From: a virus
Lineage: Duplodnaviria > Heunggongvirae > Uroviricota > Caudoviricetes
Virus record (IMG/VR): IMGVR_UViG_3300026478_000263
Direction: 5' to 3' (one strand)
Length of the DNA stretch: 64,000 nucleotides
The position numbers and the translations under genes were made by a program. The notes beneath the pieces are model-generated. The model was not told the DNA's origin, did not search any database, and worked only from the letters and a program-made list of their open reading frames with translations. Each line of letters begins with the position of its first letter. The stretch's first letter is position 1. This document shows, piece after piece, positions 8,804 to 23,413 of the stretch.

Positions 8804-10417
8804 ATGAGCTCAAACATCGACAAAATTCTTCAAGATTTAGGTGACGCACTAAAATCAGCCGCTAACGGTGGCACACTATCTAAGGGCATTTCTGATACTG
8901 CTACACGTGAGCAGATGATTGTTACAGATAAAGGTGTACAGGTTGGCGTATTAAGTGCTGACAGAATTAGCGGAAACATTCACGTAGAAGGCGTTCTTGG
9001 CGCTGGAAAAATTGTTGCCGCAGGTACTAGCGAATTTGCTAACTTAAAAGTTAACGGCAAATTAGAAGCAGATACGCTGTTAGTTAAGAATGTTATTTCA
9101 GAACAAAGCCTAGAATCATTTACAAAATCCATTTCTTTTGCCAGCAGACAACTCAGCGATTTAGATGGTAAAGGCTTGCAATGGGACAGCCCAGATGTAA
9201 GTTATCAGTTTGTTTTTAAAGCAAACCCAAAAAGAATTTTCAGCACAGAATCTATTGATTTATACAAAGGTTCTAAGTATCAAATTGAAGGCACAGATGT
9301 TTTAGAGCGCACAAGATTAGGTAATTCAGTACGTGACAGTAACCTACGCACAGTGGGTCCTTTAGAAGAACTACGTGTTACAGGCGAAACAAACCTAGGT
9401 GACACAGTTTTTGTTAATGCCCTAGGAAGACTAGGTGTCAATACAGAAGAACCAAACGCAGTTATCAGTGCCGTTGACAATAATGTAGAAGTAATTTTAG
9501 GTGCGGATCAAGACTCAGTGGGTTTTGTAGGTACTTGGGGCAGTAACAGTTTCAGTATTGTTACCGATAACACAAGACGTATTACAGTATCAGGAAACAC
9601 TACAGAGTTTGGCAATGCTAAGAGCAAAGGCGCAATAGTCAAAGTTCACGGCAGATTAGAAGTAGACAGCATTGTATCTGACATCAGAATCGAAAAAACT
9701 AGTCCAATAGAATTTATAGCCAGTAAGGATAACAGTATTTTTGGCAAGGGTATGCAATGGAAGGGCGAAGGTGGTACACGTCAGTTTATTATGCTTCCAA
9801 ACCCTGACAGAATCTATTCTTCAGAAAGTCTTGAATTAGCAATTAACAAAGAATTCTGGATCGACGGTAAGAGTGTATTAAACAGAACTGACCTAGGAGT
9901 TAGCGTTGTTAACTCTAGTCTTACTCGTTTAGGCACACTGACATCATTAGATGTTGCTGGAACAGTAAACTTGTCAGACAGCATTACTGTACAAGACAGC
10001 GTAGTTACAATTAACAATTCTGTAACAATCAAAGACGGCTCGGGCACATTAAGATTATCCAGCAGTGGTATTACAGCAGATAAGTTTGGCATTGGCGAAG
10101 ACTTTGAAGTAGATAACGCTGGCAGTATCCGTATCGGTGACAAAAATAATACAACTAGAAATGTAAACATCTATGGACAACTAAGTGTAAACATTACCAA
10201 CCCACAAGAAGATGCGGCATTCAGCGTAGACGGAATGATGGTTATCAATGGTAAACGCTTTGCACACGGCGTAGGTGCTCCTACAGAAAAAGCCTGGAAC
10301 AAAGGCGATATCATTTGGAATAGCAGTCCAGTAAGAACTAGTTACGTTGGATGGATCTGCGTAATGAGCGGTACTCCTGGTACTTGGGAGCCGTTCGGTT
10401 ATATTGGCGGAAGATGA
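8804..10417 (+). CDS. virion structural protein with two internal repeats (start re-called from 8510 to ATG 8804)
   Basis: ATG 7 nt after TATAAATA; repeated G.QW...F....NP.RI.S.ES..L......I.G..VL.RT.LG.SV..S.L...G.L..L.V.G unit. Confidence 0.7.
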   Translation: MSSNIDKILQDLGDALKSAANGGTLSKGISDTATREQMIVTDKGVQVGVLSADRISGNIHVEGVLGAGKIVAAGTSEFANLKVNGKLEADTLLVKNVISEQSLESFTKSISFASRQLSDLDGKGLQWDSPDVSYQFVFKANPKRIFSTESIDLYKGSKYQIEGTDVLERTRLGNSVRDSNLRTVGPLEELRVTGETNLGDTVFVNALGRLGVNTEEPNAVISAVDNNVEVILGADQDSVGFVGTWGSNSFSIVTDNTRRITVSGNTTEFGNAKSKGAIVKVHGRLEVDSIVSDIRIEKTSPIEFIASKDNSIFGKGMQWKGEGGTRQFIMLPNPDRIYSSESLELAINKEFWIDGKSVLNRTDLGVSVVNSSLTRLGTLTSLDVAGTVNLSDSITVQDSVVTINNSVTIKDGSGTLRLSSSGITADKFGIGEDFEVDNAGSIRIGDKNNTTRNVNIYGQLSVNITNPQEDAAFSVDGMMVINGKRFAHGVGAPTEKAWNKGDIIWNSSPVRTSYVGWICVMSGTPGTWEPFGYIGGR

Positions 10418-10989
10418 TATCTGTATTTGGCAACGGCGAATCCAGAAAACATTTAGATTTAAATTCACTTACAGAAACTAAAGTTGGCTGTAACGCCATA
10501 CATAGAGACTACTCAGTCGACCATTTAGTCTGTGTAGACAGACGTATGGTACAAGAAGCACTGGATAGCCACTTTGCTGGCACAATCTATACTAGAAAAG
10601 ATTGGGCACACTTCTACAAAAACAATCCTGTAAAAATATTACCAGACTTGCCTTACCAGGGCACTACTAGACCTGACGAGCCTTTTCAATGGGGCAGTGG
10701 TCCGTATGCTGTTTTGTTAGCCGCTATGCTAGACGACCATGTAAACTTATTTGGTTTTGATCTACACAGCCCAACACAGTTTGTCAATAACATTTACAAA
10801 GATACTGCTAACTATGCAGATGCTACTAAACCCGCAGTGGATCCAAGGTATTGGATATACCAGATTGCTCGCGTGTTTGAATGTTTCCCCGATAAGTACT
10901 TTGTAGTTTTTAACAATACAGAATGGCAGATGCCCAGTAGTTGGCTTTTGGCAAATGTTAAATTCAAAACTATTGACAGTATAATGTAA
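10414..10989 (+). CDS. glycosyltransferase-like/Rossmann-like protein (start re-called to ATG 10414)
   Basis: ISVFGNGESR...VGCNAIHRD...DHLVCVD...LFGFDL pattern; ATGA overlap with upstream stop. Confidence 0.5.
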   Translation: MISVFGNGESRKHLDLNSLTETKVGCNAIHRDYSVDHLVCVDRRMVQEALDSHFAGTIYTRKDWAHFYKNNPVKILPDLPYQGTTRPDEPFQWGSGPYAVLLAAMLDDHVNLFGFDLHSPTQFVNNIYKDTANYADATKPAVDPRYWIYQIARVFECFPDKYFVVFNNTEWQMPSSWLLANVKFKTIDSIM

Positions 10990-11001
10990 TACCTATATAC
11001 T
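10973..11001 (+). promoter_or_regulatory. sigma70-type promoter for queD
   Basis: TTGACA(10973-10978)-17 nt-TATACT(10996-11001). Confidence 0.85.
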
Positions 11002-11009
11002 GTATCAAT

Positions 11010-11048
11010 AGAGGACTAGACGCTCACCCCTCTTTAAATACTCTGCGT
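11010..11048 (+). ncRNA. preQ1-I-like riboswitch aptamer (candidate) in the queD leader
   Basis: P1 AGAGG/CCUCU, loop ACUAGACGCUCACC, A/U-rich tail, pseudoknot ACGC/GCGU; starts at predicted +1 and precedes queD. Confidence 0.6.
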
Positions 11049-11079
11049 GTCATCAAACTTAACTTAAAAAGGGCAAGAG

Positions 11080-11637
11080 ATGACTTGGATCATTGATAAA
11101 ACATTTGAATTTTGTTATGGACATCGTGTTCATACACAAACACTAAACGGCGAATATGCGGCAGACTTGAAATGTGCTTGCAGACATTTACATGGACACG
11201 AAGGTAAAATGCAGGTTCATTTAACAGGCGACGGATTAGATAAAACTGGAATGGTCACTGACTTTAGACATTTAGAATGGCTAAAGAAATGGATCAACAC
11301 TTATATTGATCATCAATTTATTATTGATAAAAACGATCCGCTGTTTACTAAGATGCTGGGAGAAAAAGTCGAGCTAATTCCAGTGTATGTTCCAGAAACC
11401 GAATACGTTGCAGGTTGGCATATTCATCCAATCTATTATGCTAATATGTCTGGTCCTGAACAAGAATACTACGAAGGATTTATGGTAGTAGACTTTGTTC
11501 CAACATCGGAACACCTAAGTAGTTGGATGGCAGAATTAGTTGATGTCAAAATGAAAAAATTAGGCGTCAAAGTTCACAGCATCGAATGGTGGGAAACTCC
11601 TAAGAGTCGTAGTGTTTTTTATAAAGATGGTACGTAA
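11080..11637 (+). CDS. queD: 6-carboxy-5,6,7,8-tetrahydropterin synthase
   Basis: FEFCYGHR, CRHLHGH, GMVTDF, DHQFI, PTSEHL, WETPKS. Confidence 0.92.
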   Translation: MTWIIDKTFEFCYGHRVHTQTLNGEYAADLKCACRHLHGHEGKMQVHLTGDGLDKTGMVTDFRHLEWLKKWINTYIDHQFIIDKNDPLFTKMLGEKVELIPVYVPETEYVAGWHIHPIYYANMSGPEQEYYEGFMVVDFVPTSEHLSSWMAELVDVKMKKLGVKVHSIEWWETPKSRSVFYKDGT

Positions 11638-11788: not shown

Positions 11789-12483
11789 TGCTAAACGTCA
11801 TTAGTTTAAAACACGGTACAAAGTACGGTCCGGAATATGTAAACAAACTTTACAATATGGTCTCAAGGCACTTAACTGTGCCTTTTGATTTTTATTGCTT
11901 TACTGAAGATCCTACAAACTTAAATCCTGCAATTAAAATTAAACCCTTGCCCAAAGGACTGTTTTCTGGTTGGTGGTGGAAACCATATATCTTTAAACAA
12001 GGACATTTTCCAGACGGTGATGTAAATTTGTTCTTTGATTTGGATATGGTTATTGTAGGTAATATAGACAAATTGGTTTCGTACCTGCCTGGAAATTTTG
12101 TTGGTTTGGAAGATGTAGGCAGAGTGTTTAGACGTGTGCCACCAAAATTAGGTAGTGCTGTACTGCGTTGGCCCAGTAACCATTTCAGCAATATTTGGGA
12201 CGATTTGGAAAACAATCCAGCGTTAACCAAAAAGTTCCCAGGTGATCAAGATTGGATTTGGCAGTCACACAAAAGTATTATAAAATTTTTCCCTGAAACT
12301 TGGATACAGAGCTACAAGTGGGAAATAAGACAGCGGGAAGAGTTGATTAGGGTTCAGGGTAAAAACGTGTTTAAGACGGTGCGTAGCCCGTCTATGAACC
12401 CGGATTGTAGCGTAATTGCGTTCCACGGAACACCAAATCCCGAAGATGTCCAGGACCAAATCATTGTTGACAACTGGCAGTAA
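11788..12483 (+). CDS. GT-A fold glycosyltransferase
   Basis: KHGTKYGPEYVNKL, FYCFTED, DxD motif FDLD, GDQDWI, FHG.PNP. Confidence 0.75.
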   Translation: MLNVISLKHGTKYGPEYVNKLYNMVSRHLTVPFDFYCFTEDPTNLNPAIKIKPLPKGLFSGWWWKPYIFKQGHFPDGDVNLFFDLDMVIVGNIDKLVSYLPGNFVGLEDVGRVFRRVPPKLGSAVLRWPSNHFSNIWDDLENNPALTKKFPGDQDWIWQSHKSIIKFFPETWIQSYKWEIRQREELIRVQGKNVFKTVRSPSMNPDCSVIAFHGTPNPEDVQDQIIVDNWQ

Positions 12484-12495
12484 CGATGCTATAAT
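12467..12495 (+). promoter_or_regulatory. sigma70-type promoter for uvsE
   Basis: TTGACA(12467-12472)-17 nt-TATAAT(12490-12495), perfect consensus. Confidence 0.9.
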
Positions 12496-12523
12496 ATATT
12501 ATCGTAACTTTATCGAGAGTTTT

Positions 12524-13543
12524 GTGAACAAACGTATTGGCTTTGCCTGTAAATGGATCGACCGTCCAGATCAAGTAGACGGTATTAAACCCAAAGATGA
12601 ATGTAAGAAATACAATACAGGAGCAACAACTGTGGCTTGGCTTAACCGTCAAACCAAAGATGTGGCTGTTGAAAAATTGTGGTCTTTGCTTGAACAAAAT
12701 ATCAACTCAACTAAATTATTAGTAGAAAGGGTAGGGCAATTAGATGATGACTTACGTATGGTACGCCTTAGCAGTGATATTCTTCCTGTCTACACTGAGC
12801 CTACTTGGTGCTGGTTTTGGCGTGAAAATGATGTGCAGACATACGCCCAAAAACATTTTGCAGAAGTGGGAGATATTGCTCGTTCCCGCAACGTTCGTCT
12901 CAGTTTTCATCCTGGTCAATTTACTGTGTTGGCAAGCGACAATCCTGATATTGTTCAGCGTTCTATAGAGGAGTTTGAGTATCATGCGGATATGGCGAGA
13001 TGGATGGGGTATGGTAAAAGATTTCAGGACTTTAAGATCAACGTCCACATCGCCGGTAGAGCCGGTCCAGCCGGTATTAAAAGTGCCCTCCCGAGACTTT
13101 CCCCCGAAGCAAGAAACTGCATCACCATCGAAAATGACGAAATCACCTGGGGAATCGACTCAAGCCTCGAACTTGCCAAAGATCTCGCTTTGGTGCTAGA
13201 CATACACCATCATTGGATTAATACTGGAGAATATATTGAAGCAACTGACGACCGTGTTAAAAGGATTATCGATAGTTGGCGTGGTGTGCGCCCTGTCATA
13301 CATTATAGTGTTTCACGGGAAGAGCATCTTAATGGCCATGCCACAGACTCCGCTCCCTCCCTACTTTCACTAATGGAAAGTGGACACAAAAAAGCAAAAC
13401 TCAGAGCACATTCGAACTTCTACTGGAACACAGCAGTGAACGAATGGGCACTGAGTTTTTGGGATCAGTTTGATATTATGTGCGAAAGCAAGGCTAAAAA
13501 TCTAGCCTCGTTTGCACTACACAAACAAGCGATTACTTCTTAG
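12524..13543 (+). CDS. uvsE: UV DNA damage endonuclease (start re-called to GTG 12524)
   Basis: RIGFACK, RLSSDILP, RLSFHPGQFTVLAS, IENDE, LDIHHH, HSNFY. Confidence 0.92.
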   Translation: MNKRIGFACKWIDRPDQVDGIKPKDECKKYNTGATTVAWLNRQTKDVAVEKLWSLLEQNINSTKLLVERVGQLDDDLRMVRLSSDILPVYTEPTWCWFWRENDVQTYAQKHFAEVGDIARSRNVRLSFHPGQFTVLASDNPDIVQRSIEEFEYHADMARWMGYGKRFQDFKINVHIAGRAGPAGIKSALPRLSPEARNCITIENDEITWGIDSSLELAKDLALVLDIHHHWINTGEYIEATDDRVKRIIDSWRGVRPVIHYSVSREEHLNGHATDSAPSLLSLMESGHKKAKLRAHSNFYWNTAVNEWALSFWDQFDIMCESKAKNLASFALHKQAITS

Positions 13544-14104: not shown

Positions 14105-14134
14105 TTGGATACAAAGTCTTTTTTGGAGTATTCA

Positions 14135-17100
14135 ATGGCACGTAAAATAGTCGACATCGGCGTATCAGGTAATGACGGAACTGGTGATAGTATCCGTGAA
14201 GCGTTTAGAAAAACGAATGAAAACTTCCAAGAGTTATATGCTGTTTTCGGTCAAGGCGGATTTTTAAAGTTCACTGACCTTAGCGATACTCCTGATACAT
14301 TAGTAGGACAAGGTAATAAGATTCCAGTAGTTAATTCTATTGGTACTAGTTTAGTATTCAAAGACTTTTTCAGTCCTAACGGTACTATCCAGTTTGATTA
14401 TTCCGAGCAAGAAACCTTTGATATTGTTAGTGTATCAAGAAGTAGCAACGTTGCCACTATTACACTTTCAGCAAACCACAATTTAGATCCTGGACAACGA
14501 GTTACAATCGCGTCCACAGACAATACTTCATTTAACACTACTTCTGCCCTATTGTTAACTGGCACAGTAGACAATGTTCTAGTATATACAAACGCAGGAA
14601 CAAACTTATCAACTAGTGCGGCAACTGGTACTATTACCAGTTACGGTTCCGTTAAAATTGATACATTAAGTTCTAAATTACAGGACGACCCATTACCAAA
14701 ATTACAATATGCGCTGGATGCACGTAATCAATTAATCGGCGGCTTACGCAGTCCTATTAATCAAACAGATTTCCAAACTGCTGTTAATAGTTTCAACACA
14801 CAGCACGAAACTCTTTATAGCATAGATTCCTTTGCTATTAACAAAGGTTATGCCGACTCCAAATATGTAAACATTACAGGCGACACAATGACTGGTCACT
14901 TAAATGTGCCAGCAAACGCCACAGGTAACCAAGCACCACGTGCCGCAGAAGTTGTATTAAAAACTGGCGGCGATATGACTGGTGTGCTAAACTTAGCAGA
15001 TCATCCAGGCGGACTTGCAGGTGCTGGTACGCCTAACGGAGAAGATGACTTACAAGCCGCTACAAAATATTATGTAGATAATTCAAGTTATTCAAGCAGA
15101 TTTAACTTGTACGTTACCACAGGCGGTGACGACACACAGGCACGTACACCGCGTGGAAAAGAAGGACGCGATCGTTCTTATGCTTATGCAAGTATTAACA
15201 AAGCCTGTCAAAAAGCAGAACAATTAGTAAATGATGCACCATGGGAAACTGGTCCTTATCGTCAGTTAATTGCCTACGGTGGCGGTGAAGCGTTCTCTGA
15301 AGTTACAAGAATTGAATCTGGTGCATCTGGTACTACTCGTGTTTACTTTACTAACAACGGTGGTTCTCGTGTTGACCAAGGTCAATTACCAAAACCAGAT
15401 ATTGTCTCCGGTAAGATTGTTGTTGGACGTACCAGCGGCGCACAGGGTTTCATTTATCAATACTATGGCTCCGATGGTAGTTCAAGTATCGGCGAAGACT
15501 ATTTTGACTTGCAGGATGTTATTGGTGATTTTGTGCCTGGCGAAAACCTAGAGTTTGACCAAGCAGTTAAAAATATCCAAATTAGTATTGTTGTTGAATC
15601 TGGTATCTATTTTGAAGACTATCCAATTCGTGTCCCGCCAAACGTTGCTATCGTTGGTGACGAATTGCGTAGATGTATTGTTCGTCCAGCGGACCGCCCA
15701 AGTCGCAGTCCATGGGTTGACGTTTGGTTCCGTAGAGATAAAACATTTGACGGATTAACTTTAACCAGCACAGAATACGGTTATCACTATCTAACAGACC
15801 CGTCTGATATTTTAAGTGAACCAAAGAACAACAGAGACCTTGACGTATTCTTATGTAACGATGCTGTTATTATTCGTCAGATTACCTGTCAAGGCCACGG
15901 CGGCTTTATGATGGTACTTGACCCAGAAGGTCAAATTTTAACCAAGTCTGCATATATTCAACAGTCCGGTTCTTTTGCAGGATCACTAAACAAACAACGT
16001 TTTGCTGGTGGACAGTATGTTGACGGCTTTGCTGGTAACGTTCCTCTTAAGATTCAAGAAAAAATCAGCGACACAGAATTCCTAGTAACAGGCAGTGAAC
16101 GTGCTCCAACAACTCCTTGCTCATTTGTTATTGACGGAAGAACTTTTAAAGTTGAAGCATACACTGATGACGGCAACGGCTATGGAAATGCTAGAAAATT
16201 AATTCGTCGAAACATCGACTTTATCAAAGCAGAAGTTATTGGTTATATTAATACAGAACTAAGTCCACCATTTACATTCAACGAAACCAAATGTGCTCGT
16301 GACGTTGGATTGATTGTTGATGCACTAGGTTACGATCTAGCACTAGGTACAAACTTTAATGCTGTACGTGCTGGACAATCATACTATCGCGGCACACAAT
16401 ACAGTATTCTTCCAGACCAAAAAGATGAATACTTAGATGCGTTAATCTATACAAGAACATTAATTTCTGATGTATTAGCCGGTAACTCTGTTGCACGTCT
16501 AAGAGCAGAAGCAAGTTTTGATGAGATAACAGATATCATTGCTAACGGTATTATTTCATCAGATACAATTACATGGTCAGATCCGTCAGGTGCTCCTACT
16601 TCAAGAGTAAATGCAAAAAATCTTATTTTAGATAACATTGAATTTATTAAAGAAGAAATTATTGCCTGGATTGCTGAAGAATATCCAGACTTTGTCTACG
16701 ACGAAGACAAGTGTCGTCGAGATGCGGCATACATTTTAAATTCTATTGTTTACGACTTACTATATGAAGGTAACTCGGCAACTGTAGAAGCCGGATATCA
16801 ATATTACGATGGTAACGGAAGTTTGCAAATTCCTGGACAAACATTGCAAACCACAGAAGCATTGGCCTATGCCAGTGGTGTTGCACAGTTAGTTGTTACT
16901 AATACTCCTGTTCCGTTCCCTAAACAAAGTGCTGTAACACAGGTATTTGATTTAGTTAATCCAGGTAGCGCAACTGAATCTGCTAGAGTAGGTGTGTTAA
17001 TGGGCTACATTAATACTATTATTTTAAGCGGACGTGAAGCGGCTCCTACTATTGAATATCCAACTTTCTATAGTGTGTCTGGTTCGTTAACAGACAGCAG

Positions 17101-20100
17101 AACATTATTGTTAAACAACAAAGAAAGTATCAAGTCTGACACATTAGTTTATCTACAACAAAGATATAGTTACAACCAAGATACTTGTGCTCGTGACACT
17201 GGATACATCTGCGATGCTATTGCACACGACATTTATTATAGCGGTAATTTAAAAACAGTTCAGGCAGCTCTAGCATACTTCAATGCTAGTGCTAGTTCTA
17301 AGATTGTTATTGACCAGCAGTTGGCCAACACACTTGCGGCTATTAACTACATTGAAACATTGATATTAAATGTTATTAATAACGAAGATCCAACAGTACG
17401 ATATCAACAATCTGTTCTACAGTATATCGATACCGATATTACCGATGGCGGCTTAGCAGAAGCAACTATTCAAGATTTGTTTGACGAGTTCATTGGCATT
17501 TTAGAAAATCCGCCAAGTGCTCGTGGTGCTCGTGCATTGTTAGTCGATAATAAAGATTTTATCAAAGCAGAAGTTATTAACTACATTAACAACAAATATG
17601 TAGGATTTACCTATGATTCTGCTACATGTCAACGTGACGTGGGTTATGTAATTGATGCTATTGGTTACGACTTAATGTTTGGCGGCAACTTCCAGACAAT
17701 TACAGCGGCAAGATCTTATTACAGAGCTTCAGCCGCTGTGGCTGTTGGCGTACAAAAAGCCGCAACTATTGACGCATTTACTTTCTTAAGAGATGAAATA
17801 TTATCTGTTGTTAGTGCAAGTGCTACCGCAGTTACTAGTGTAACTACCAACATGAATATGTTCTTAGATGTTATTACTAACGGACTAACTCAAGAACCTG
17901 CAATCGTAACTCCTGATCCAACAGGCTACGATGTAAATTATAATCGTGCTAGAACACTGATTGAATCTAACAGAGAATTTATTAAAGCAGAAGTAATTCA
18001 ATATATTTCTAACAACTATGTTGGATTAAGTTATGACCCTGCTGTATGCTTACGTGATACAGAATACATTTTAGATGCACTATATCACGACCTAACCTAC
18101 GGTGGTAACATTCAAACATTGATTGCTGGTAAGGCTTATTATTCTTACACAACTCTACAAGTTGCGGCTCCTGAGAAACCAGCAACATTGGCCGCATATG
18201 GTTATCTACAAAGTCTAGTTGAAGACATTGCATTAGACTTACCTATTACTGCATTACAAGGTGGTGTTGCGCAGGTTCGCGGTACTCCAGGTAACAGTTC
18301 TGCCAGTGCTACTGCTGGACAGCGTATTGGAGAAATTTTAACAATTATCGACCTTGGGCTCGGTTCTGTTCCTTCAACAATTACTCCAAGTACTGCTTGG
18401 GTAAGTGCTGGCTTAACTGGTGCAAATTCTGCACTACAAAGTGCTAAGTCAACTTTACAAACTGCTGTAACAAATTATATCGATGCTAATTATACAAACA
18501 CATTAGTTTACAATGAAGAAATTTGTTCACGAGACGTTGGCTTTATTGTTGCCGCAGTTTCAGCAGACTTGTTATATGGCGGAACATACTTAACAATTCG
18601 TGCCGCACAGCGTTACTATGTAGGTACTGCTAGTAGCCGTGTTGTATTAGAAAATCAATTATCACAAACATTAGATTCATTTGCCTATGCCAAGGAAGTT
18701 GCACAGGCTGTATTGAATCAAGTTCCACCAACATTAAATTATCAAGTTATTAACGATGTTGCTGTAGAGAATAGAGTATCACAGGTATTCAGTTCTGACT
18801 ACGACGGCTCTGCATTTGTTACACGAGCAGGACAGTTGTTTGATTTATTAAACGAAGTTATTACAGACCCGGAAGTAGATGTTTCAACAGTATTAACTGG
18901 TGCCAAACCTATCGTTTACCCAACATACAGATTAGTTCTTTCTACAACTACTCCTGTAACTAACGACTTAGAATATACTATTTCTACCTTCACTAGCAAG
19001 GCAGACTCGGGCGTCGGGGATGGATCTTACGATGTAGTATTCAGCATTGTTACGCCCGTTGGAACTACTGCTCCTAGAACTAAAACACGTTATAGAGTGT
19101 TTGGCAACAGCAACTCTAACTATAACAATGATGCTGTAGAGTGTGTAGCATCTACACTAACTTCGATGACACTACGTTATCCAAGTGACCCGGGTGCATT
19201 TGGCACTGGCACTACTACCATAGAGTATGTAAAAGACTTTATGCTACTAAGTGCTGGTAACACCAGTATGTGTTCAAATGACTTTACACAGATTAACGAC
19301 TTAGGTTATGGACTGGTTGCTACAAACATTGGTTTGATTGAAACAGTTTCTGTGTTCAGTTACTATTGCTGGACTGCTTATTATGCCAACAACGGTGGAC
19401 AGATTCGTTCATTGAACGGTTCTAACGCACACGGCGAGTATGGTATTATTTCTGAAGGTAGTGATCCATTAGAAGTTCCAGATAAGTGTAACTTGTCAGA
19501 CAACATGATGCAGGTTGCTCGTGTTTACAAACAAGGAATTTATAGCACAGACAACGATGTTGGTGATTTACAGGTATTTTTCTACCAACATGATTACTCA
19601 CCATACAACGTATCTGAAGTTGAAATTAACCACGGCGCTGGCGTTGTTACAGAACTAGACGCAACTAGTTTAATCGGTGGTAGTGGTTATACCAACGGCA
19701 CATATATTAATGTTCCGTTAACAGGCGGAACTGGTAGTGGTATCACTGCTAACATTGTTGTGTCAGGAGGTGTAGTAACTACTGTAGGTTTAGTTGCCGC
19801 AGGTATTAGATACAGCGAAGGTGATATTTTAAGTTGCAGTAATACAAACGTAGGCGGAACAGGTTCGGGCTTCTTTATCACTGTTAAAACTATTATTGGT
19901 AACGGTATTGCTCGTTACGAAGTTGCAGGTGTAACTGATGTTTCAAGTACCTTGGCACAGTCTGTTTCTGGAACACCACTTAAGACTGGGCCAACAGGCG
20001 GAAAATATTACGTAACATATTCGTTCACTGCTGAACCATATACACCAAGAATTGGTGTACCTTACACAGTTAGTGGATCAACAACTTCTGGGTTTAACGG

Positions 20101-23100
20101 TGTATATACTGCTACCGCTAGTACAACATCTAGTGTTACACTAGAGTACAGTACCAATCCTGGAACATGGGCAGGCGGTTTGGCTAGCCTATGGGGCCTA
20201 GGCAACGTTCTACGTCTAAACATCAACACTGGCGGTAATAATGATACTGCTACAAACGGCTTGGCCGTAGCATTGTCACATGACCAACCAATTATTATTC
20301 GCAGTAACCAAAACTTTAAGTTCTACGAAGTCGATGACACTAACCCGGTTCGTCCAAGTACTGCATTGACATTCGTCGGTGATCCCGATGCAGGTGCTAT
20401 TGTTTATCGTGTGTTAGCATACGGTAACAAAGGTCCATTAAATGAAGACCTTGCGGTAGACGAAAGTATTCTAGGCTTCGATACAACTTACGATTATGTA
20501 AAATTACTAGTCAATGCAGAAAATGTATCTAACGCTGATCCAGATAATGTTGGACAGACTATGGGGTCGACTGCTGGTGATACTAAGATTGCCATCGACC
20601 GTGTAAACGAAACTGACATTGAAAGCAGACTTAATACCGGAGATATGATTACTGCCTGGGATGGCAAGATTCATAAAATTTTAAGTTACACTGACATGGG
20701 GTTATTAGCCGGTTACGCTTATGTTGAAATAGAAGATGTCGCTGATAAGTGTCTAGCAGGAACATCTGCTAGCGGTATTAATACACCAGTTGATCCAGAC
20801 TTTAACTTGGATATTTCTGAACCTCCAACATTACGTGCAGGTTTATCTAGCACAGAGCCAGCAGAAGTTATTGTACGTATTAGTACTTGCCGTGTTACAG
20901 GACATGACTTCTTAGACATTGGTACTGGAGGCTATAACGATACTAACTTCCCAAGCAAGATTTACGGTGCTCCAAAAGAACCTAACCAAGCACGTGAAGT
21001 TACAGAACGTACAAGAGGACGTTGTTTCTATGTAACCACAGACCAAGACGGTATTTTCCGTGTAGGTCGATTCTTTACAGTTGACCAAGGTACTGGTCGT
21101 GTAACGTTTGCGGCATCTATTGCGTTGTCAAACTTAGACGGTCTAGGATTTAAGCGTGGTGTTACAGTTAGTGAATTCTCAAACGATGATAGATTTACTG
21201 ACGGTGCTAACGATGCGCTACCAACTGAAGCGGCAACACAAGGTTACATTGACAGACGTCTTGGAATGGATCGTACAAATAACGTTCTAGATCCAACTGC
21301 ACTAATTGGTCCAGGCTACATGGATCGTGCTGGTTTGTTAACATTTACTGGTCCAGATCCAATGGACATGGGCGGATTTGTTATTGCTAACTTAGGTAGT
21401 CCTACTGCTGATACAGATGCGGCTAACAAGTTATATGTTAGAAATCAAGAACTAAGCGATGACAGAGTTGATACTTCAACAAGTCCAGCAAGAAGTTTAA
21501 ATGATTTATTAGTTTATAACGGAGTTAAATGGATCAACGCTGAAACAGTTAGCACAGGCGATATTCAAACTTCATTGACTCCTGGAACTAAAAATCTTGC
21601 TTTAAACATCAAGTCTAATGTAATTATTAACGCAGACGTTAATTCTAGTGCGGCTATTGCACAAAGTAAGTTAGACATGAATAAAGCAACTACTCGTGCA
21701 AATGCTACAAGTATTGCACAGGCAGATTTGGGTCTAGCAAGTTTCAAGAGTACAGAATTTACTGCAACTAACGGTTGGATTGAGTTGCAAACATCCAGTT
21801 CAACAACTACAGGTGTATTACAAACTAAATTACAGTATATTGCCAACGACACTTATTTAGGTAATAATACAGGCAGTGCTACATATCCTCGTCAAGTAAC
21901 ATCTGGACAGATTGTTACCAACGGCGATGGTATTAAGAATGCGTCATTTGCTCCAGGATCAGTAGGTAGCAATGGTCGTGCAATGATTTTAACTGCTATT
22001 GGTCCAAACGCTTACAGTACAACAAACATTAGTACAAGTGCTCAGGCTAGTTCATTGATACAATCTGATGGTAGCGGCCGTGTTGCTGTAGCACAGTTAG
22101 ACTTAACTTCAAGTAGTTATAAGACCTTAAGCGTCAGCGGAACTACACTGACTATGACTACACCCGGTGCTGTAGACTTCTTAACAGCAGTTGGAACTAC
22201 TTCAGCAGGCACAACTATTACCACAGTTGGTACTTTAAGTGCAAACGCAATAACATCAGCAAGCACTACAACATTTAGTCCTGCTAATGCTAACGTAACA
22301 CTAAGTCCAAGTGGTACCGGTACTGTAACTATTGCTCCGGCCAGTGTCGGATCAATAAACAACGTAAACATTGGTGCAACTACTCGAGGTAATGGTTATT
22401 TTAAATTGTTGTCTGCTAACGATACAGTAACCTTAACTGCTAACCAAGCAGTAACAGGTGCTGCCAACGGTACTGGTACATTACAGGTTACAGGCGGTGC
22501 AGGTATCAGTGGCGACCTACGTGTTGGTGGAACTATCTACGGTGCTGTTACTGGTACATTGGCTGGTACACTGGGTCTAAGCACATACCTAAGTTTCACT
22601 GCTGGTTCAAGTTACGATGGTAGTACAACACGTACAATCCAAACTAACGCAACAAGTGCGGCCACAGGAAGCACATTAGTTGCACGTGACGTTAACGGTG
22701 ACTTCAACGGACGTTATATTAACAGCAGTTACTTTAACAGTAGCGACGATGTAAGTGGTGGCACCATTACATACATAATGGCTAAGTTTGGCGATAACTA
22801 CTATCGCTCTGCTACAGCCGCAAAAGTTGCTTCGTTCATTAGCGGACAGTCAATGAACATTGCAGGTAATGCAAGTACAGTTACAATTAACTATAACAAC
22901 GATAGTAACAGCACATATCAAATGTTATGGGGTAGCGGTAATAGTGTATATGGCACAGGCGGCATTTATTGTAATCCATTTACCGACACACTATACGCAA
23001 CATTATTCAATGGTACTGCTACAAGTGCTCGTTACGCTGACTTGGCTGAAAAATACTTGTCAGATGCAGAATATGAAACTGGTACTGTTGTAGTATTTGG

Positions 23101-23413
23101 TGGTGATGAAGAAATTACAGTCACTGACAAACATAACGATACTAGAGTTGCTGGTGTTATTTCTGAAAAACCAGCGCATTTGATGAACTCTGATTTAGCA
23201 GGAAAACATCCACTAGCAGTAGGCCTAACAGGACGCTTGCCATGTAAAGTACTTGGTAAGGTTAAGAAAGGTGATATTCTAGTTACTGCGGCTAAGAAAG
23301 GTTACGCAATAGTTAATAATACTCCATCTGTAGGAACTATTATTGGTAAGAGTTTAGAGAACAAAGACGATTTAGGCGAAGGCCTAGTTGAGATTGTTGT
23401 TGGTAGATTCTAA
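14135..23413 (+). CDS. giant baseplate/tail-fibre protein, 3092 aa, with six CxRD repeats and C-terminal chaperone/autocleavage-type domain
   Basis: N-term IVDIGVSGNDGTGDSIREAFRKTNENFQELY (T4 gp9/gp10-like); C-term ARYADLAEKY...GTVVVFGG...GVIS..PAHLMN...GLTGRLPCKV; GGAG SD before ATG 14135. Confidence 0.8.
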   Translation: MARKIVDIGVSGNDGTGDSIREAFRKTNENFQELYAVFGQGGFLKFTDLSDTPDTLVGQGNKIPVVNSIGTSLVFKDFFSPNGTIQFDYSEQETFDIVSVSRSSNVATITLSANHNLDPGQRVTIASTDNTSFNTTSALLLTGTVDNVLVYTNAGTNLSTSAATGTITSYGSVKIDTLSSKLQDDPLPKLQYALDARNQLIGGLRSPINQTDFQTAVNSFNTQHETLYSIDSFAINKGYADSKYVNITGDTMTGHLNVPANATGNQAPRAAEVVLKTGGDMTGVLNLADHPGGLAGAGTPNGEDDLQAATKYYVDNSSYSSRFNLYVTTGGDDTQARTPRGKEGRDRSYAYASINKACQKAEQLVNDAPWETGPYRQLIAYGGGEAFSEVTRIESGASGTTRVYFTNNGGSRVDQGQLPKPDIVSGKIVVGRTSGAQGFIYQYYGSDGSSSIGEDYFDLQDVIGDFVPGENLEFDQAVKNIQISIVVESGIYFEDYPIRVPPNVAIVGDELRRCIVRPADRPSRSPWVDVWFRRDKTFDGLTLTSTEYGYHYLTDPSDILSEPKNNRDLDVFLCNDAVIIRQITCQGHGGFMMVLDPEGQILTKSAYIQQSGSFAGSLNKQRFAGGQYVDGFAGNVPLKIQEKISDTEFLVTGSERAPTTPCSFVIDGRTFKVEAYTDDGNGYGNARKLIRRNIDFIKAEVIGYINTELSPPFTFNETKCARDVGLIVDALGYDLALGTNFNAVRAGQSYYRGTQYSILPDQKDEYLDALIYTRTLISDVLAGNSVARLRAEASFDEITDIIANGIISSDTITWSDPSGAPTSRVNAKNLILDNIEFIKEEIIAWIAEEYPDFVYDEDKCRRDAAYILNSIVYDLLYEGNSATVEAGYQYYDGNGSLQIPGQTLQTTEALAYASGVAQLVVTNTPVPFPKQSAVTQVFDLVNPGSATESARVGVLMGYINTIILSGREAAPTIEYPTFYSVSGSLTDSRTLLLNNKESIKSDTLVYLQQRYSYNQDTCARDTGYICDAIAHDIYYSGNLKTVQAALAYFNASASSKIVIDQQLANTLAAINYIETLILNVINNEDPTVRYQQSVLQYIDTDITDGGLAEATIQDLFDEFIGILENPPSARGARALLVDNKDFIKAEVINYINNKYVGFTYDSATCQRDVGYVIDAIGYDLMFGGNFQTITAARSYYRASAAVAVGVQKAATIDAFTFLRDEILSVVSASATAVTSVTTNMNMFLDVITNGLTQEPAIVTPDPTGYDVNYNRARTLIESNREFIKAEVIQYISNNYVGLSYDPAVCLRDTEYILDALYHDLTYGGNIQTLIAGKAYYSYTTLQVAAPEKPATLAAYGYLQSLVEDIALDLPITALQGGVAQVRGTPGNSSASATAGQRIGEILTIIDLGLGSVPSTITPSTAWVSAGLTGANSALQSAKSTLQTAVTNYIDANYTNTLVYNEEICSRDVGFIVAAVSADLLYGGTYLTIRAAQRYYVGTASSRVVLENQLSQTLDSFAYAKEVAQAVLNQVPPTLNYQVINDVAVENRVSQVFSSDYDGSAFVTRAGQLFDLLNEVITDPEVDVSTVLTGAKPIVYPTYRLVLSTTTPVTNDLEYTISTFTSKADSGVGDGSYDVVFSIVTPVGTTAPRTKTRYRVFGNSNSNYNNDAVECVASTLTSMTLRYPSDPGAFGTGTTTIEYVKDFMLLSAGNTSMCSNDFTQINDLGYGLVATNIGLIETVSVFSYYCWTAYYANNGGQIRSLNGSNAHGEYGIISEGSDPLEVPDKCNLSDNMMQVARVYKQGIYSTDNDVGDLQVFFYQHDYSPYNVSEVEINHGAGVVTELDATSLIGGSGYTNGTYINVPLTGGTGSGITANIVVSGGVVTTVGLVAAGIRYSEGDILSCSNTNVGGTGSGFFITVKTIIGNGIARYEVAGVTDVSSTLAQSVSGTPLKTGPTGGKYYVTYSFTAEPYTPRIGVPYTVSGSTTSGFNGVYTATASTTSSVTLEYSTNPGTWAGGLASLWGLGNVLRLNINTGGNNDTATNGLAVALSHDQPIIIRSNQNFKFYEVDDTNPVRPSTALTFVGDPDAGAIVYRVLAYGNKGPLNEDLAVDESILGFDTTYDYVKLLVNAENVSNADPDNVGQTMGSTAGDTKIAIDRVNETDIESRLNTGDMITAWDGKIHKILSYTDMGLLAGYAYVEIEDVADKCLAGTSASGINTPVDPDFNLDISEPPTLRAGLSSTEPAEVIVRISTCRVTGHDFLDIGTGGYNDTNFPSKIYGAPKEPNQAREVTERTRGRCFYVTTDQDGIFRVGRFFTVDQGTGRVTFAASIALSNLDGLGFKRGVTVSEFSNDDRFTDGANDALPTEAATQGYIDRRLGMDRTNNVLDPTALIGPGYMDRAGLLTFTGPDPMDMGGFVIANLGSPTADTDAANKLYVRNQELSDDRVDTSTSPARSLNDLLVYNGVKWINAETVSTGDIQTSLTPGTKNLALNIKSNVIINADVNSSAAIAQSKLDMNKATTRANATSIAQADLGLASFKSTEFTATNGWIELQTSSSTTTGVLQTKLQYIANDTYLGNNTGSATYPRQVTSGQIVTNGDGIKNASFAPGSVGSNGRAMILTAIGPNAYSTTNISTSAQASSLIQSDGSGRVAVAQLDLTSSSYKTLSVSGTTLTMTTPGAVDFLTAVGTTSAGTTITTVGTLSANAITSASTTTFSPANANVTLSPSGTGTVTIAPASVGSINNVNIGATTRGNGYFKLLSANDTVTLTANQAVTGAANGTGTLQVTGGAGISGDLRVGGTIYGAVTGTLAGTLGLSTYLSFTAGSSYDGSTTRTIQTNATSAATGSTLVARDVNGDFNGRYINSSYFNSSDDVSGGTITYIMAKFGDNYYRSATAAKVASFISGQSMNIAGNASTVTINYNNDSNSTYQMLWGSGNSVYGTGGIYCNPFTDTLYATLFNGTATSARYADLAEKYLSDAEYETGTVVVFGGDEEITVTDKHNDTRVAGVISEKPAHLMNSDLAGKHPLAVGLTGRLPCKVLGKVKKGDILVTAAKKGYAIVNNTPSVGTIIGKSLENKDDLGEGLVEIVVGRF
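16200..18700 (+). repeat. six tandem 140-159 aa protein repeats (boundaries approximate)
   Basis: Cys codons of CxRD at 16292, 16712, 17186, 17627, 18047, 18524; each preceded by N..FIK.E...YI and followed by DAI.YDL..GGN..T..A...YY. Confidence 0.85.

Follow-up and report, generated by a model that had tools for sequence, protein, structure and literature searches.

What RNA governs the queD-like gene of an uncultured river jumbo phage is the question raised by a short leader in IMG/VR virus record IMGVR_UViG_3300026478_000263. The stretch analysed here (the window, 64,000 nucleotides) is part of that 270-kb record, the estimated completeness of which is 71%; near-identical DNA is present in many river metagenome runs (2018), and the phage is a river jumbo phage. 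Between a predicted promoter and the queD start codon (ATG, 11080) lies a 42-nucleotide element (11010-11051; + strand, like the promoter, the leader features and queD), which the initial annotation took for a preQ1-I-like riboswitch exerting feedback on queD. The letters and coordinates of the leader were correctly described there, and the matter at issue is what the RNA is. Our analysis suggests that the element is probably the aptamer of a translational ON riboswitch for queD, and that it represents an uncatalogued, apparently phage-restricted class of cis-regulatory RNA; the riboswitch identity is drawn from its architecture and its gene association.

A conserved pseudoknot ahead of phage queD

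Folded alone, the leader reaches a minimum free energy of -14.9 kcal/mol, which is no better than chance (z -0.26 against 200 shuffles), and the case for a structure therefore rests on comparative data. A search of viral contigs with the QueD protein of the window returned 80 loci at 67-84% identity, the leaders of which carry compensatory variants of a first helix, P1 (AGAGG/CCUCU, AGUGG/CCACU, UGCGG/CCGCA and AGACG/CGUCU). A degenerate pattern of the invariant letters matched at least 120 loci, mostly true instances. When only sequence anchors were imposed, with no complementarity filter, all five P1 pairs were present in 103 of 113 anchored matches, and the second helix, P2, held to one register, forming 4-5 of its five pairs in 104 of 136 distinct pattern matches, far above any slid register. 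In a MAFFT alignment of 100 distinct versions (A2; P1 columns 2-6 with 28-32, P2 columns 17-21 with 46-50), 94.7% of cells are paired, against 71.8% in shuffled alignments, none of 500 of which reached the observed value, and 36-56% when the partner strand is slid. The covariation score of A2 is 0.592 against 0.165 for shuffles, and eight of the ten pairs (five in P2, three in P1) change on both sides.

An independent set was assembled through a protein of a different QueD subfamily (168 residues, encoded by at least 600 viral stretches), using no RNA pattern. It comprises 80 loci, 79 of which were searched with R1, a covariance model built from A2 with P2 as its sole pairs. The motif was found upstream of the gene and on the same strand in 74 of the 79. 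Among the 58 distinct protein-anchored sequences, 94.7% of cells are paired (75.7% when shuffled), and P1, which lies outside the R1 model, is 99% paired, its second pair being G-C in 50 sequences, C-G in four and U-A in four. Across both sets the paired fraction is 94.7%, compared with 72-76% for shuffled and 28-56% for slid partners, and together they provide 148 distinct aptamers from uncultured phages with about 60 different combinations of P2 strands. These alignments show that the P1 and P2 pseudoknot is conserved via compensating changes. The riboswitch-like element that had been placed at the 5' end of the queD message thus holds up as a small conserved H-type pseudoknot, with P1 and P2 both covarying across phage queD leaders (100 aligned, 58 protein-anchored).

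The 5' strand of P1, AGAGG (11010-11014), is separated by a 14-nucleotide loop from its 3' strand, CCUCU (11029-11033), with which it covaries; 98-99% of cells in this helix are paired, and compensatory changes occur at three of its pairs (A-U/U-A; G-C/C-G/U-A; C-G/A-U/U-A). Loop 1, ACUA (11015-11018), corresponds in relatives to a variable base, a near-invariant CU and 0-9 variable bases, so that the loop varies in length while its CU is kept in 99 of 100 sequences of the pattern-derived alignment and 57 of 58 protein-anchored relatives. The 5' strand of P2 (11019-11026) opens with GACGC (11019-11023), which pairs with GUGUC (11047-11051) through five pairs, one of them G-U, all of which covary. 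The initial annotation had instead offered ACGC/GCGU or UAGA/UCUG as P2, and covariation in the alignments rejects both; the leaders L030 (GACAG/CUGUC) and L038 (GACAU/GUGUC) break ACGC/GCGU and fit the GACGC/GUGUC register.

Beyond the P2 core, a mismatch between U11024 and C11046 is followed by pairing of C11025 and A11026 with G11045 and U11044, respectively, which completes the P2 3' strand (11044-11051). The A11026-U11044 pair changes to G-C in two relatives, L306 and L323, with zero half-changes, and this double change supports a two-pair extension of P2 across the mismatch; C11025-G11045 never varies, and covariation thus gives no test of that pair. The same two leaders (L306:330-374 and L323:326-372) are the only ones with UCG in place of UCA, and both also have UCCGC in place of UCUGC.

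Loop 2, CC (11027-11028), consists of a variable base (U, C or A) and an invariant C directly 5' of the P1 3' strand, the latter kept in all 58 protein-anchored relatives. C11028 occupies the position of the ligand-pairing 'specificity' cytosine of preQ1-I RNAs, and by analogy we infer a comparable function. The tail UUAAAUACUCUGCGUGUCAUC follows CCUCU and reaches GUGUCAUC at 11047-11054. It includes loop 3, UUAAAUACUC (11034-11043), ten nucleotides with three invariant or near-invariant A residues (11036, 11038 and 11040) and an invariant UC. Two variable positions of loop 3 change in step with the middle pair of P1 (mutual information 0.99 and 0.76), which may reflect either a base triple or shared ancestry. 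In the protein-anchored set the invariant or near-invariant bases are the loop 1 CU, UCA, the C before the P1 3' strand, the three loop 3 A residues and UCUGC. Overall, the structure is a compact H-type pseudoknot in which three loops accompany a 5-bp P1 and a P2 whose five covarying pairs are extended by two more.

The association of this motif with one gene family is close to strict. Of 105 motif loci, 103 have a gene of the QueD/6-pyruvoyl-tetrahydropterin synthase (PTPS) family beginning about 30 nucleotides past the motif, with no fewer than five QueD subfamilies represented; one exceptional locus has a cupin gene, then QueD. Among close relatives of the window QueD the motif is present at 29 of 80 loci, in one copy each and on the same strand. 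A scan of the 270-kb record with R1 likewise found a single copy, at the queD leader (62 bits, E 3e-13). Locus L087:3263-3530 (- strand) carries two motif copies about 220 nucleotides apart, the first before a 23-codon remnant resembling a QueD N-terminus and the second before an intact QueD, an arrangement suggestive of leader duplication and the decay of one gene.

When 185,579 prokaryote species, each represented by one genome, were scanned with a strict pattern, ten places matched, none of them in an isolate genome. Seven of the ten are true by R1 (47-64 bits), all in contigs of metagenome-assembled genomes (MAGs), mostly short and binned as Bacteroidota-type, Rickettsiales or Nitrospira; these are probably phage contigs. 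In six cultured phages (ACP17, R5C, X1, PA5oct, Vibrio 2.275.O and CP20) the motif model scored at most 11.3 bits within the queD region and nowhere at the leader, while against cultured phages megablast of the locus gave no match and blastn of the aptamer chance matches only. The class is apparently phage-restricted, and that it was found in no isolate genome and in none of the queD regions of these six cultured phages accounts for its absence from Rfam. The cultured jumbo Pseudomonas phage PA5oct (L269) encodes two QueD-like paralogues (169206-169724 and 171501-171971) beside FolE, with no motif; they comprise one member from each QueD subfamily found behind the motif.

Expression platform, proposed effector and competing explanations

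The ribosome site lies outside the aptamer: the Shine-Dalgarno sequence is never within P2 and is at least 15 nucleotides downstream of it. In the window, a switching sequence, GUCAUC (11049-11054), contributes its first three bases to P2, and all six of its bases can pair with GAUGAC (11079-11084), which contains the start codon (11080-11082) with its flanks and forms the 3' arm of a sequestering helix. As GUC (11049-11051) is common to P2 and to this helix, the two are mutually exclusive. Between GUCAUC and GAUGAC, the AAACUU module (11055-11060) runs into a spacer (11057-11072) in which CUU is predicted to act as an anti-Shine-Dalgarno and a Shine-Dalgarno-like AGGG lies at about 11069-11072. 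The minimum free energy and centroid folds both contain P1 and the GUCAUC/GAUGAC helix, with inner CUU pairs on the Shine-Dalgarno side. Duplex energies are -6.1 kcal/mol for GUCAUC/GAUGAC, -4.4 for P2 and -4.2 for CUCUGC/GCAAGAG. The last is an alternative pairing beside the start codon that the initial annotation had put forward; it is possible in this leader, but cannot form together with the stronger GUCAUC/GAUGAC helix, and it is the latter that relatives conserve.

A helix of at least 6 bp between the P2 3' strand or tail and the interval from Shine-Dalgarno to AUG is present in 98 of 103 distinct leaders. Its sequence falls into classes: CCUAUG/CAUAGG lies over the Shine-Dalgarno, UGCCAUUG/CAAUGGCA and (U)GUCAUC/GAUGAC(A) lie over the AUG, and AAGUCAUC/GAUGACUU and UGUCUUC/GGAGACA form further classes. 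There are thus several platform types, all of which use bases of the P2 3' strand. For the 29 leaders of the window's platform type, RNAalifold returns a CAUC/GAUG helix and a CUU/Shine-Dalgarno helix, with one-sided changes only. The AAACUU module is conserved after the aptamer ahead of several QueD subfamilies (29 leaders, alignment A4), and two linked platform variants were seen, ...ACUUAC...GGCAAGAG and ...ACUUGC...GACUAGAG. A pairing of loop UCAUC with GAUGA was also considered and dropped, since the loop base varies (U, C or A) without compensation.

With the Shine-Dalgarno outside P2 and the P2 3' strand shared with the anti-start helix, the folded pseudoknot would correspond to an open ribosome site, that is, to an ON switch, and the feedback (OFF) logic of the initial annotation is not supported by this arrangement. 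In the free RNA, GUCAUC, made up of P2 3' strand bases and those that follow, would pair with GAUGAC at the start codon, and CUU would pair with the Shine-Dalgarno region, leaving queD untranslated. A ligand that stabilised the pseudoknot would draw GUC into P2, the sequestering helix would be lost, and translation could begin. Both the small-molecule effector and the ON direction are what we infer from this architecture.

QueD diverts 7,8-dihydroneopterin triphosphate (H2NTP) from folate synthesis toward 7-deazaguanines, and the record encodes FolE, QueD and a QueE-like gene. FolE lies next to the QueE-like radical-SAM gene (G000:C1:152199-154606), about 55 kb from queD, and neither of the two has the motif; only queD carries the RNA element. 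A search of the genome for TGT/DpdA gave no match and one for QueC a single weak QueC-like piece under the cut-off, and with a record that is 71% complete neither absence is established. The connection with DNA modification drawn in the initial annotation is conjectural. Given which gene is controlled, and that the C where P1 and P2 meet is invariant, we propose as the most likely ligand a heterocycle that presents a guanine-like face and belongs to the route running from GTP through pterins to 7-deazaguanines. A retuning to another ligand, as suggested in the initial annotation, may also apply. An ON switch would fit a precursor or substrate signal better than end-product feedback. On a more speculative level, and with appreciable doubt, this might be the first virus-only riboswitch class of the preQ1-I fold type, a feed-forward ON switch located where folate and 7-deazaguanine synthesis diverge in infected cells. 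Its signal would be a guanine-faced precursor, either a 7-deazapurine or a pterin (H2NTP, for example), and queD translation would open only in the presence of substrate. In some phages, 7-deazaguanines shield the DNA from restriction (PMC6884629).

Were a ligand confirmed, the motif would be a riboswitch class at home in phages and not in cells, combining the preQ1-I fold type with reversed logic and a different pocket periphery. Phages would then meter the step at which H2NTP leaves the folate route, and the motif would provide a natural example of evolution re-engineering a 40-nucleotide pseudoknot. Moreover, a small, modular, ON-type element would be attractive for synthetic control.

Several observations weigh against the interpretation of the element as a translational ON riboswitch. 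The term riboswitch is taken from architecture and gene association. The apparent invariance in A2 is partly due to the RNA pattern used for collection, a bias of which the protein-anchored alignment (A3) is free. The absence of the element from 51 of the 80 close QueD relatives implies that it is dispensable. Swapping tails and ribosome sites among leaders lowers the mean sequestering helix from 6.7 to 5.7 bp, a moderate separation, and this helix co-changes from class to class with almost no strict compensatory change within a class, a scarcity attributable to its 3' arm being the start codon or the Shine-Dalgarno. When the aptamer bases are made unavailable, the probability that the AUG is unpaired rises from 0.00 in the free leader to 0.41 (family median 0.02 to 0.36), but blocking bases necessarily raises accessibility, so that such comparisons are weak tests. 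Two RNA-library contigs begin at 10927, upstream of the promoter, and the transcript start is a prediction. Finally, an ON switch on a biosynthetic enzyme is unusual, and the preQ1 riboswitches described in one review are all OFF switches (PMC11625349).

The reading closest to the initial annotation, in which a divergent preQ1-I riboswitch would bind preQ1 or preQ0 and repress queD by feedback from the end product, we consider unlikely. It would explain why the topology is the same, why a 5-bp P1 ends in G-C, why an invariant C after U, C or A precedes the P1 3' strand, in agreement with the UC/AC signature, and why the gene is queD, which belongs to the classical preQ1 regulon. Rfam preQ1-I membership was nevertheless not borne out. 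In Rfam 15, no family reached threshold in the window and none appeared at E<=10 on 10900-11150; 11 diverse relatives gave only chance miRNA-type matches at E<=10. The preQ1-I model, RF00522, scores below about 9 bits at the leader against a threshold of 39, yet it finds the B. subtilis preQ1-I and gives 43-57 bits on five real preQ1-I RNAs from bacterial genomes; across the whole phage genome at E<=10 it produced seven weak matches of 9-14 bits (maximum 13.8), none at the leader. The reciprocal test fails as well, in that R1, with filters off, scored none of the five real preQ1-I sites, its best match elsewhere in those loci being 6.5 bits. Also hard to reconcile with preQ1-I are a P2 of eight layers rather than 3-4, the invariant UC of loop 3, UCUGC, which has no counterpart, and a Shine-Dalgarno at least 15 nucleotides beyond P2 and unsequestered by it, with the only conserved alternative helix predicting ON. 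The motif is not a member of the Rfam preQ1-I family, although it works somewhat like one.

A protein-binding translational operator, through which QueD would regulate itself or a phage translational repressor would act as at the T4 gene 32 leader, is a rather improbable alternative, slightly easier to entertain. QueD is the only protein always co-occurring with the motif, and protein-bound phage leader pseudoknots exist (T4 gp32; mentioned in PMC10690425). The conserved loop bases, though, are identical before widely differing QueD subfamilies, no other gene is constantly linked (FolE at 25, UvdE at 39 and the QueE-like gene at 21 of 105 loci), and both its size and the conservation at its junction are what small-molecule aptamers typically show. 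We also know of no RNA binding by T-fold enzymes. We are still less inclined towards a ligand-independent element, one that would stabilise the mRNA 5' end, offer the ribosome a standby or enhancer site, act as an RNA thermometer or serve as a folding timer set by transcription. The element starts at the predicted +1, where 5' structure can protect a message, and its competing helices are only a few kcal/mol apart, so temperature or kinetics could decide between them; a stabiliser or thermometer, however, needs neither about 20 invariant or near-invariant unpaired bases nor a strict tie to a single family of enzymes in many lineages of phages. To a chance resemblance without function we give practically no credence: the shuffle z-score of the single sequence would suit it, but covariation in 148 versions, the failure of all 500 shuffles to reach the observed pairing and the strict gene association refute it.

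Promoter, transcript and neighbouring genes

The promoter that the initial annotation had noted is present at 10973-11001. It is of the sigma-70 type and near-consensus (11 of 12 matches), with a -35 of TTGACA (10973-10978), a 17-nucleotide spacer and a -10 of TATACT (10996-11001). AGAGG begins eight bases past the -10 hexamer, and the transcript is predicted to start at about 11008, 1-2 nucleotides 5' of P1. In relatives a -10-like hexamer most often ends 6-9 nucleotides 5' of P1, which fits such a start. Contigs from four river metatranscriptome libraries (X19-X22) cover the leader and queD, although contigs of this kind record presence only, and the start, strand and level of the RNA are not readable from them; gaps in cover upstream of the leader in two RNA runs carry no evidential weight. 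Over 11018-11061, queD-leader contigs of other phages in the same libraries merge (at 11018-11019) into a common 43-nucleotide conserved core, from which it follows that several motif-bearing phages coexist in the river samples and are present in RNA libraries.

The queD-like gene (11080-11637) encodes a 185-residue protein of the 6-pyruvoyl-tetrahydropterin/6-carboxytetrahydropterin synthase family (PF01242, E 2.4e-27). Its match to the NCBIfam QueD equivalog model, at 59.8 bits, is below the 89.25 cut-off, and its homologues in Campylobacter, Pseudomonas and Vibrio phages are 37-43% identical. Directly upstream of the promoter, a gene of 212 residues (10351-10989) has no Pfam or NCBIfam match; a neighbour cluster similar in size and position (about 211 residues, GNGES motif, median about 670 nucleotides upstream) occurs at 26 of 105 motif loci, and the window gene may belong to it.

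The common neighbours among the 105 motif loci are UvdE (39), FolE (25), the QueE-like radical-SAM protein (21), a HIT protein (18) and a phosphoribosyltransferase (16). In the window, the gene for UvdE, a UV damage endonuclease, lies two genes downstream of queD (12416-13543); in the 39 related loci it stands no more than a few kb downstream of the motif, a linkage of queD with UV repair. A perfect consensus promoter (12467-12495; TTGACA, 17 nucleotides, TG-TATAAT, 12 of 12) is situated just within the start of the listed UvdE open reading frame, and as the Pfam match begins at residue 80, the true UvdE start is probably further downstream. Further along the + strand is an open reading frame of 3102 residues (14105-23413).

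Relation to known RNAs

Keyword searches of the literature found no description of a phage queD, PTPS, preQ0, pterin or 7-deazaguanine riboswitch. The text of a catalogue of more than 10,000 viral structured-RNA candidates (PMC10690425) does not contain queD, and an unnamed entry there is possible.

The nearest known relatives in form are the preQ1-I RNAs (B. subtilis queC, T. tengcongensis and E. coli; types I-III). These have a 5-bp P1 closed by a conserved G-C, a specificity C that follows U or A and abuts the P1 3' strand, and an A-rich tail leading to a short P2 that touches the Shine-Dalgarno in an OFF switch (PMC11625349). In the queD motif, too, a small H-type pseudoknot begins a queuosine-pathway message. 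Its P1 has the same length and closing pair, an invariant C (after U, A or C) stands directly 5' of the P1 3' strand, bases of the hairpin loop pair with the 3' tail to make P2, and loop 3 contains A residues and could occupy the groove of P1. It thus has the H-type pseudoknot with a P1 of about 5 bp and the sequence feature of the specificity cytosine, to which a role in binding would be assigned by analogy; it lacks the short P2 that follows an A-rich tail, overlaps the Shine-Dalgarno and imposes OFF logic, and an invariant UC precedes its P2. Unlike preQ1-I, with its 3-4 layers, the queD motif adds C-G and A-U to the five covarying pairs of its P2 (eight layers in all) and has a loop 1 of NCU with a variable insert rather than UU(C), and an invariant UCA...UCUGC, the second part of which has no preQ1-I counterpart. 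Its Shine-Dalgarno is outside the aptamer and its platform predicts ON, and apart from a few MAG contigs the motif was found in phage contigs alone.

The SAM-II, SAM-V, guanidine-III and fluoride riboswitches resemble the queD motif in being H-type pseudoknots of the same size class, with a third loop that possibly forms triples with a helix, but none matches at E<=10 and their gene associations are unrelated. The leader pseudoknot of T4 gene 32 is also a phage 5'-leader structure through which translation of the gene next to it is controlled. There the gene's own product, a single-strand nucleic-acid-binding protein, binds the pseudoknot, whereas no such protein is implicated at the queD leader. 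With riboswitches in general the queD motif shares a covarying aptamer with conserved unpaired junction bases, a constant position in the 5' leaders of genes belonging to one pathway, and a mutually exclusive platform. In its predicted logic it most resembles the V. vulnificus add adenine riboswitch, a translational ON switch in which a helix masking the Shine-Dalgarno and AUG shares the 3' strand of the aptamer, and ligand binding frees the ribosome site, although the add aptamer is a three-way junction and that of queD a pseudoknot.

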